From Escherichia coli (GTDB taxonomy: Bacteria; Pseudomonadota; Gammaproteobacteria; Enterobacterales; Enterobacteriaceae), in assembly GCF_003334335.1 (NCBI RefSeq), contig NZ_QOWQ01000142.1: 864 nt of DNA; one strand, 5' to 3'. Below the pieces are notes generated by a model. It was not told the origin of the DNA. It was given only the letters and a program-made list of their open reading frames with translations, and made no database searches. Shown one piece after another: positions 1 through 864 of this stretch (position 1 is its first letter; every line of letters begins with the position of its first letter). The position numbers and the translations under genes are program-made.

Positions 1-204
1 GGGACAACGCCACGCTCCGTTAACGCGGTAAACCCCGGTGTGTATCGTTTTTGATTATCCCCGCACACTCGCGCAGAGGAGTCTCCCGGTAGGGCTGCGG
101 TCTCTGTTCATGTGGGAATACGGCGACGATACTGCGCAAAGACATGCTTCAGAAATACATAAGTAAACTAAAATATTGTATCTCTGTGGCTAATTACGTA
201 AATT

Positions 205-228
205 GGTGGCTTGGCCCCTTTAGCCACC
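205..228 (-). terminator. Candidate stem-loop, possibly an intrinsic terminator, about 35 nt downstream of the Rz stop
   Basis: GGTGGCT (205..211) and AGCCACC (222..228) form a perfect 7-bp GC-rich inverted repeat around a 10-nt loop. On the minus-strand transcript the stem is followed by AAUUUACGUAAUU, a weak and interrupted U-tract. On the plus strand no U-tract follows. Confidence 0.25.
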
Positions 229-262
229 GGCAAATCTTCAGCGGATTATCCTTGGCCGGTTT

Positions 263-736
263 TTATCTGAGGCATTGCTCACGAATGTATAGCTGTGCCC
301 CTTCCAGCTGCTTCTGCATTGTCATCAACCGTTCTCTGAGGATGAAATAATCCCGTTCAGCGGCGTCTGCCAGTCTGGGGCCGGTTGCATTATCCACGCC
401 GGAGGTGGTGGGGGCTTCACGCACGGAGCCTGGACAGGTGGCGTTGATCCGCAGGCGCTTACGACCAGCGGCAACGTCAGCGCGAAGAGTTTCATTTTCA
501 GCTCTCGCATCGGCTAATTCCCTCGAGTATTTTGCATCGAGCGCAGCAACATCGCGCTGGCGCACCTGCATATCAGTAATGGTTGCGTTCGCCAGCTTCA
601 GTTCACTGGCTTTGTTATCGCGCTGCGCTTTGTAGGTAATCGCGTTATCACGGTAATGGTCTGTTGCCATCCACAGCGCTCCACAGGCCACCAGCAGAAT
701 AACGATAAACGCGGAAAGCATTCGGTTTATGTTCAC
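263..736 (-). CDS. Rz: Rz-family i-spanin (inner-membrane spanin subunit, annotated in many genomes as phage endopeptidase Rz/RzpD-like)
   Basis: The 157-aa ORF starts at GTG 736..734 and ends at TAA 265..263. It has a short N-terminus with one Arg, then a hydrophobic transmembrane segment ([19 protein letters not shown]), then a charged, Ala/Arg/Glu-rich periplasmic domain. From memory it aligns closely with lambda/P22 Rz: motifs [75 protein letters not shown] and a C-terminal EQC are all shared. Two periplasmic Cys are present (INATC and EQCLR), matching the disulfide-forming Cys of lambda Rz. An alternative start is ATG 721..719, giving 152 aa; neither start has a strong Shine-Dalgarno. 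Confidence 0.9.
325..510 (-). CDS. Rz1: Rz1-family o-spanin (outer-membrane lipoprotein spanin subunit), embedded in the +1 frame of Rz
   Basis: The 61-aa ORF (ATG 510..508) lies wholly inside the Rz gene in the +1 frame. It has a lipoprotein signal peptide with a charged n-region (MRELKMK), a hydrophobic h-region ([10 protein letters not shown]) and a lipobox VSA|C (Cys20, codon 453..451). The mature 42-aa peptide is very proline-rich (11 Pro) and carries a second Cys (Cys30). From memory, the mature segment [29 protein letters not shown] is nearly identical to lambda Rz1. GAGGG lies 9 nt upstream of the ATG. An alternative start is ATG 495..493 (MKLFAL..., 56 aa). Confidence 0.85.
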
Positions 737-864
737 CCCAGCAGCCCCGACGAAGACAACATCATCCAGGCCATGGAAAGAAAAAGAGCAACCAGCATTA
801 GTGAAAATGAAATGCCGACAATTACACAGAGGATCTTCGCCAGCGTTATGAGTTTGTCTGACAT
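733..864 (-). CDS. Hypothetical small single-pass membrane peptide (43 aa) upstream of and overlapping the Rz start; function unknown
   Basis: The ORF runs from ATG 864..862 at the window edge to TGA 735..733 and encodes [43 protein letters not shown]. It has a short polar N-terminus, a hydrophobic stretch of about 28 residues consistent with one transmembrane helix, and a short Ser/Gly tail. Its stop overlaps the Rz GTG start in a GTGA arrangement, which suggests translational coupling. The ORF was too short for the supplied ORF track. Its ribosome-binding site lies outside the window, and the ATG could be internal to a longer ORF. Confidence 0.35.

Follow-up and report, generated by a model that had tools for sequence, protein, structure and literature searches.

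A GTG codon overlapping an upstream stop as the probable start of the Rz spanin gene in a common Escherichia coli prophage

The Rz gene of a very common Escherichia coli prophage offers two in-frame initiation codons at its head, and the question it raises is which of them the ribosome uses. Both lie within a stretch of 864 nt, analysed here and referred to throughout as the window, all genes of which are on the minus strand. An initial annotation of this DNA had recognised the gene as Rz and had named GTG 736 and ATG 721 as its candidate starts, and both positions were confirmed on the minus strand, in frame and five codons apart. We argue that GTG 736 is the likely main start of Rz, a view that draws on the geometry of the junction with the upstream gene and on the pattern of conservation among related loci.

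Several E. coli chromosomes carry prophage DNA that matches the window at 100% identity, among them NZ_AP022815.1 (1213241–1214104). The inducible phages PhiR12_1, PhiR12_2 and PhiR12_5 match it at 99% identity, and there are matches in 2,219 of 5,426 complete E. coli genomes, at roughly 7,400 places. The chromosomal copy (locus L001) has, in order, a class II holin, a YdfR pseudogene, a lysozyme, ORF60, ORF43, Rz (labelled 'lysis protein') and the terminase genes, with Rz at the end of a holin–endolysin lysis cassette. The edge of the window at position 864 coincides exactly with the ATG of ORF43, and from there it runs through Rz into the region ahead of the terminase genes. What it contains is the last part of the lysis cassette in a lambdoid, Stx phage-related prophage of E. 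coli. The lysozyme of L001 has the C-terminus ...ACWGIDR, which we take to be R21-like.

Between Rz and the terminase side, window positions 1–262 are without an annotated gene in RefSeq and hold short open reading frames only. A sigma-70-like match at window 202–175 (minus strand) is at chance level, as were all matches returned by a scan for promoters and terminators, and a search of the window against Rfam gave no match at E ≤ 1. Further upstream, a terminator-like hairpin, AAAACCCCG...CGGGGTTTTGTGTTT, was noted by eye between the lysozyme gene and ORF60 (L001, approximately 3738–3778), a position that falls within the expected late operon.

The gene and the features on which its identity turns are as follows.

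263 to 736, minus strand: the Rz i-spanin gene, encoding the 157-aa form if it starts at GTG 736 (open reading frame list, PHROG 13, PF03245, identity to lambda Rz).
668 to 721, minus strand: the N-terminal transmembrane helix of Rz, residues 6–23 (Kyte–Doolittle 17-residue maximum of 2.54).
325 to 510, minus strand: the Rz1 o-spanin lipoprotein gene, 61 aa, in the +1 frame of Rz (open reading frame list; PHROG 3198 'Rz-like spanin', E=7e-31; lipobox LVVSAC).

The name Rz, already proposed in the initial annotation, is borne out by a match to PHROG 13 'Rz-like spanin' (E=1.5e-73), in which residues 4–157 cover profile positions 2–154, and by a match of residues 31–155, the periplasmic coiled-coil domain, to Pfam PF03245 (E=1.5e-48). 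The protein is 71% identical to lambda Rz, and its cysteines C101 and C155, invariant in alignment A1, are the counterparts of lambda C99 and C152. NCBIfam returned no match for Rz, Rz1, ORF43 or ORF60. From these similarities the identification of Rz as a lambda-type i-spanin with an embedded Rz1 is secure, and the gene family and its arrangement are well known, the start ambiguity itself being of a kind already described for spanins.

The two candidate codons lie at, and just past, the end of the small upstream gene, where the following features are found.

733 to 864, minus strand: ORF43, the gene of a 43-aa single-helix membrane protein, MSDKL...GLLG-stop (open reading frame list; PHROG 4906, E=2e-23; WP_001280932.1).
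734 to 736, minus strand: GTG, the best-supported Rz initiation codon (invariant in 147 of 147 loci; overlaps the ORF43 stop as GTGA).
719 to 721, minus strand: ATG (Met6), the alternative start (the choice of PGAP; ATT in 12 of 147 loci).
728 to 730, minus strand: ATA (Ile3), which aligns with the canonical ATG of sister Rz alleles (DNA alignment A3).
745 to 748, minus strand: GGGG, a weak Shine–Dalgarno-like element inside ORF43, 8 nt before GTG 736 (pairing with the 3' tail of 16S rRNA, -5.0 kcal/mol).

Read on the minus strand, the ORF43 frame ends ...CTG CTG GGG TGA, and the Rz frame, which begins one base earlier, reads GTG AAC ATA AAC CGA ATG CTT TCC. The TGA stop of ORF43 occupies 735–733, and the overlap of the GTG with this stop that had been described at the outset is confirmed as the 4-nt sequence GTGA at window 736–733. 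GTG 736 is the first ATG, GTG or TTG past an in-frame stop 50 codons upstream. A second in-frame start-like codon within five codons is expected by chance in about 21% of cases, given the base composition; the two nearby start-like codons are a real pattern and no statistical anomaly.

Ribosome-binding signals at the junction are as modest as had been claimed, pairing being weak at both starts (-5.0 kcal/mol for the GTG and -6.0 kcal/mol for the ATG), and the pairing site of ATG 721 lies 12 nt away from its codon. ORF43 has a pairing of -11.3 kcal/mol, from AAGGGAGGA just beyond the window edge. The RNA of the junction folds no more stably than shuffled sequence (z = -1.63); in its minimum free energy fold the GGGG/GTG region is base-paired to codons of ORF43, an arrangement that would suit coupling.

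The two starts would give proteins that differ at the membrane, and on this point the initial annotation also held, the hydrophobic maximum spanning residues 6–23. Initiation at GTG 736 would place fMet-Asn-Ile-Asn-Arg ahead of the single membrane helix, so that Arg5 would sit in a short basic tail on the cytoplasmic side and the coiled-coil domain would be periplasmic; lambda Rz, with its Met-Ser-Arg, is built alike. Only the GTG start supplies Arg5, and a protein started at ATG 721 begins with the membrane helix itself. The topology (type II, N-in) is predicted from hydropathy, and for such an N-in, C-out anchor the positive-inside rule favours the form that bears Arg5.

Related loci came from IMG/VR viral contigs, which were scanned once for protein similarity and twice for DNA patterns. 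The sample of 147 loci in which the starts were compared was anchored inside the membrane helix only, downstream of the GTG, and consists of loci that share the junction type of the window. At all 147 the sequence reads GTG followed by AAC, AGC or AAT and then ATA AAC CGA, with zero stops or frameshifts, an invariance that is confounded with that of the ORF43 stop, two of the three bases being common to both, and that comes from loci so closely related that few independent events are counted. ATG 721 is kept in 92% of these loci and is replaced by ATT (Ile) in 12. The initial annotation had reasoned that the ATG would be favoured if homologues consistently lacked the GTG; what was found is the opposite, the GTG being lost at none of the 147 loci and the ATG at 12.

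These 12 loci are informative in themselves. Seven retain ORF43 and the GTGA overlap, and in them the GTG is the sole start preceding the helix. In the remaining five the upstream gene is an unrelated one, for a Dam methylase, and the sequence reads ATG GTG AGC ATA AAC CGA ATT; in this cassette homology to the window starts at about the GTG, as would be expected if a gene boundary lay there. PGAP calls a 158-aa protein, MVSINRIL..., where the internal ATG is missing. The ATT variants encode full-length Rz proteins (147–166 aa), among which four or more periplasmic alleles are represented, and their Rz1 lipoprotein genes are intact, so that they are to be regarded as maintained and not as decaying genes. 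Two E. coli genomes contain the ATG-GTG/ATT variant as an exact copy (100% identity). For the ATT variant of the L077 type no exact copy was found, the best match being 95% among complete E. coli genomes and 92% among phage records.

A different view of the junction is provided by sister alleles in what we call the type B arrangement (loci L070, L071, L081 and L082), where an ORF43 homologue is followed by an Rz allele beginning MNRVLCVV.... Here the sequence is ...GGG TGA AAGAGAG ATG AAC CGT GTT, so that 7 nt, rich in purines, separate the stop from a canonical ATG. In DNA alignment A3 the type B ATG corresponds to the ATA (Ile3) of the window, the following AAC CGN to Asn4–Arg5, and Val4 to Met6. 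The spacer of the window is 2 nt as against 7 nt in type B, that is 5 nt shorter, and the lack of these 5 nt brings the GTG of GGGGTGA into frame with Rz. From this alignment the window junction looks derived from a type B-like arrangement.

The same alleles bear on whether the codons between GTG and ATG encode protein. Asn/Ser-Arg after the start position is conserved in the sister alleles and in lambda (MSR), and the codon for Arg5 varies synonymously, being CGA, CGT or CGC across alleles and AGA in the Met-Ser-Arg of lambda. Such synonymous variation of the Arg codon is, in these alignments, a signature of selection on the amino acid. Position 2 of the PHROG 13 profile falls on Rz residue 4, and this alignment, together with the retention of Asn/Ser-Arg through synonymous codons, argues that the codons separating the two candidate starts evolve like coding sequence. 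The codon of Met6 has as its counterpart GTT or GTC (Val) in the type B alleles and in lambda Rz, and ATT (Ile) in other relatives; Met6 most likely acts as an interchangeable hydrophobic first residue of the helix, where Met, Ile or Val may stand.

Against this background the case for ATG 721 can be weighed. If Rz started there, the protein would have 152 aa, the five upstream codons would be an untranslated spacer, and the GTG would matter only for its share in the ORF43 stop. As a start codon ATG is canonical and intrinsically stronger than GTG, and it is the choice of PGAP, whose coding sequence for Rz (L001 4144–4602) encodes 152 aa, as well as of several phage records, that of phage P13374 among them. 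In public databases it is the 152-aa form that bears a name, with 180 contigs as against 43 on which other pipelines call the 157-aa form. The position of the ATG at +11 nt past the ORF43 stop still permits reinitiation (PMC10666635), and, with the codon kept in most loci, a part or even much of the initiation may take place there. However, ATG 721 has no Shine–Dalgarno sequence at a usable distance, and its product would be without the N-terminal Asn/Ser-Arg that lambda and all the sister alleles share. It is ATT in relatives whose Rz and Rz1 are intact, Met6 aligns with Val or Ile, and the supposed spacer never contains a stop or an indel across the 147 loci. We therefore regard a main start at ATG 721 as unlikely, and on the comparative evidence the ambiguity is largely resolved in favour of GTG 736.

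It is also conceivable that both codons are used, by leakage or as a regulated dual start, giving two Rz isoforms, one of 157 aa with the cytoplasmic Arg and one of 152 aa without it. The geometry resembles that of a dual-start motif, with a basic residue between two in-frame starts, and both codons, kept together in 92% of the loci, are within reach of a ribosome that has ended ORF43. Yet a second start-like codon this close has the substantial chance expectation given above, and the second start is not conserved, being ATT in 8% of loci and a Val codon in the type B alleles and lambda Rz, for which reason a required dual start is unlikely. No report of i-spanin isoforms was found in the literature searched, and we know of none for any i-spanin. 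Taken as a whole, this reading strikes us as quite improbable.

Two forms of unconventional decoding were considered as well, and together they seem highly improbable. In one, initiation would take place at ATA 730, which occupies the position of the sister-allele ATG and lies 5 nt past the GGGG run; but AUA initiates very poorly in E. coli, and a proper GTG stands two codons upstream. In the other, a -1 slip on G GGG UGA would create an ORF43–Rz fusion with two membrane helices. The Rz frame is indeed -1 to that of ORF43 and is open for 50 codons upstream, and the tRNA-Gly could re-pair on the GGGG beside the stop. Against this, there is no conspicuous RNA structure that might stimulate a slip (fold z = -1.63, with no Rfam match), and the -1 frame of type B stops within five codons; the fusion is thus not conserved and the slip probably without meaning.

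If GTG 736 is the start, the way in which it would be reached is suggested by the junction. Ribosomes would load at the strong Shine–Dalgarno sequence of ORF43, finish that gene and restart at the overlapping GTG by termination–reinitiation, and, because of the GTGA overlap and the weak Shine–Dalgarno pairing of the GTG, initiation of Rz probably depends largely on ribosomes terminating on ORF43. In lambda, R and Rz overlap as ATGA, and an overlap of -4 nt is the commonest arrangement in native E. coli gene pairs (PMC10666635). When the stop was moved to +14 nt in such pairs, reinitiation fell by 40–80% (PMC10666635), a figure in view of which some initiation may still occur at ATG 721, at +11 nt. 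The gene identities, the junction geometry and the conservation pattern are observed, and from them we infer both the coupling and the codon that the ribosome actually uses; in the literature searched, no mapping of the N-terminus was found for this Rz or close relatives, and publications on the ORF43 peptide, on EHEC ribosome profiling and on Stx-phage lysis cassettes gave no experimental data on the Rz start or on ORF43.

Were ORF43 not translated, such coupling would not apply. The initial annotation had held that the choice of Rz start bears on whether this upstream frame is genuinely translated, which is reasonable, although the evidence is divided: a strong, conserved Shine–Dalgarno sequence and an intact frame speak for translation, and the substitutions are only weakly protein-like. 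ORF43 is intact in 24 distinct DNA variants, has homologues down to about 60% identity and keeps its Shine–Dalgarno sequence in at least four unrelated upstream contexts; its profile is that of a conserved single helix, always found adjacent to Rz, in two junction types. The pooled dN/dS is 0.66 versus 0.88–0.91 in other frames. Variable sites are evenly spread over the codon positions, with no third-position excess, and the Rz frame is also open across ORF43. Judged by these features, ORF43 is probably translated. A search of the K-12 Qin prophage for a comparable small protein backed by ribosome profiling showed that it has no ORF43 and that its Rz belongs to a different family (DUF2514).

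The ORF43 family (PHROG 4906) consists of single-helix membrane proteins of 43–49 aa in 115 protein clusters, and its matches with a named source are all from E. coli; one homologue lies at L235 683–832. At every locus examined ORF43 was found directly upstream of Rz, and it equals ORF53 of the O104:H4 Stx2a phage P13374. Just upstream of ORF43 is ORF60 (L001 3804–3986, PHROG 1115), the gene of a 60-aa small membrane protein, relatives of which, ending ...AIRWW-stop, themselves stand immediately before Rz in further cassettes (L058, L061 and L066). Small membrane frames abutting Rz seem to recur in these lysis cassettes, and many Stx-type prophages, the phage P13374 of the O104:H4 outbreak being one, have ORF43 and ORF60 placed after the SAR endolysin gene and before those of the spanin.

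ORF43, with ORF60 beside it, is the only loose end with some promise. Subunits of one complex are over-represented among overlapping gene pairs (PMC10666635), and one could imagine ORF43 as a new membrane component of Stx-type lysis cassettes, produced in fixed ratio to Rz through the GTGA overlap and acting as an inner-membrane partner or regulator of the spanin, an idea that we offer as speculative and rather doubtful. As a weaker alternative, the GTG/ATG pair may yield two Rz isoforms that differ in membrane insertion.

The relevance of the start is mainly one of annotation. The 152-aa Rz of NCBI is probably five residues short, and this form of a very common prophage gene would then be without the Arg that helps to orient the membrane anchor. 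Gene callers often misplace spanin starts by avoiding overlaps, and 34 i-spanin starts have been corrected (Kongari et al., PMC6139136); the split between 152-aa and 157-aa calls fits that description. A still shorter Rz, of 135 aa, is annotated in the PhiR12 records (L002 4195–4602) from the ATG of Met23 (window 670, minus strand); it has no membrane helix, and this start was rejected because it removes the helix. Rz1 is unannotated in all six records examined. Correct N-termini are needed if spanins are to be recognised automatically, and the locus adds one clear example to a known problem of overlap avoidance, leaving the understanding of lysis unchanged.

Several known systems may be set beside this junction. 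In the lambda holin S107/S105, likewise the product of a lysis gene, a membrane helix is preceded by two in-frame starts that stand a few codons apart and flank a basic residue; in the window, by contrast, the second start is not conserved among relatives and the protein is an N-in spanin, for which, to our knowledge, no antagonist isoform has been described. The coupled E. coli pairs with a -4 nt overlap (Huber et al. 2019, PMC6728339; 2023, PMC10666635) share with the window a co-directional NTGA overlap and a strong Shine–Dalgarno sequence for the upstream gene only, the downstream gene being without a strong one of its own. They differ from it in that the start in the window is GTG and that coupling and ORF43 translation are here inferred from the sequence. 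The type B sister alleles, 85–86% identical, have the ORF43 family directly upstream, the same Rz family and an embedded Rz1, but they possess the AAGAGAG purine-rich, Shine–Dalgarno-like spacer and an ATG, whereas the window must use either the overlapping GTG or the downstream ATG. Lambda Rz/Rz1 itself has the endolysin gene R upstream, where the window has the gene of a 43-aa membrane protein, and it starts at ATG with a three-residue tail, MSR, where the window would have a GTG and the five-residue tail MNINR. The two nevertheless agree in a short tail with a single Arg, one N-terminal helix, two periplasmic cysteines, an Rz1 embedded in the +1 frame, and a 4-nt overlap of the start with the upstream stop, ATGA in lambda and GTGA in the window.
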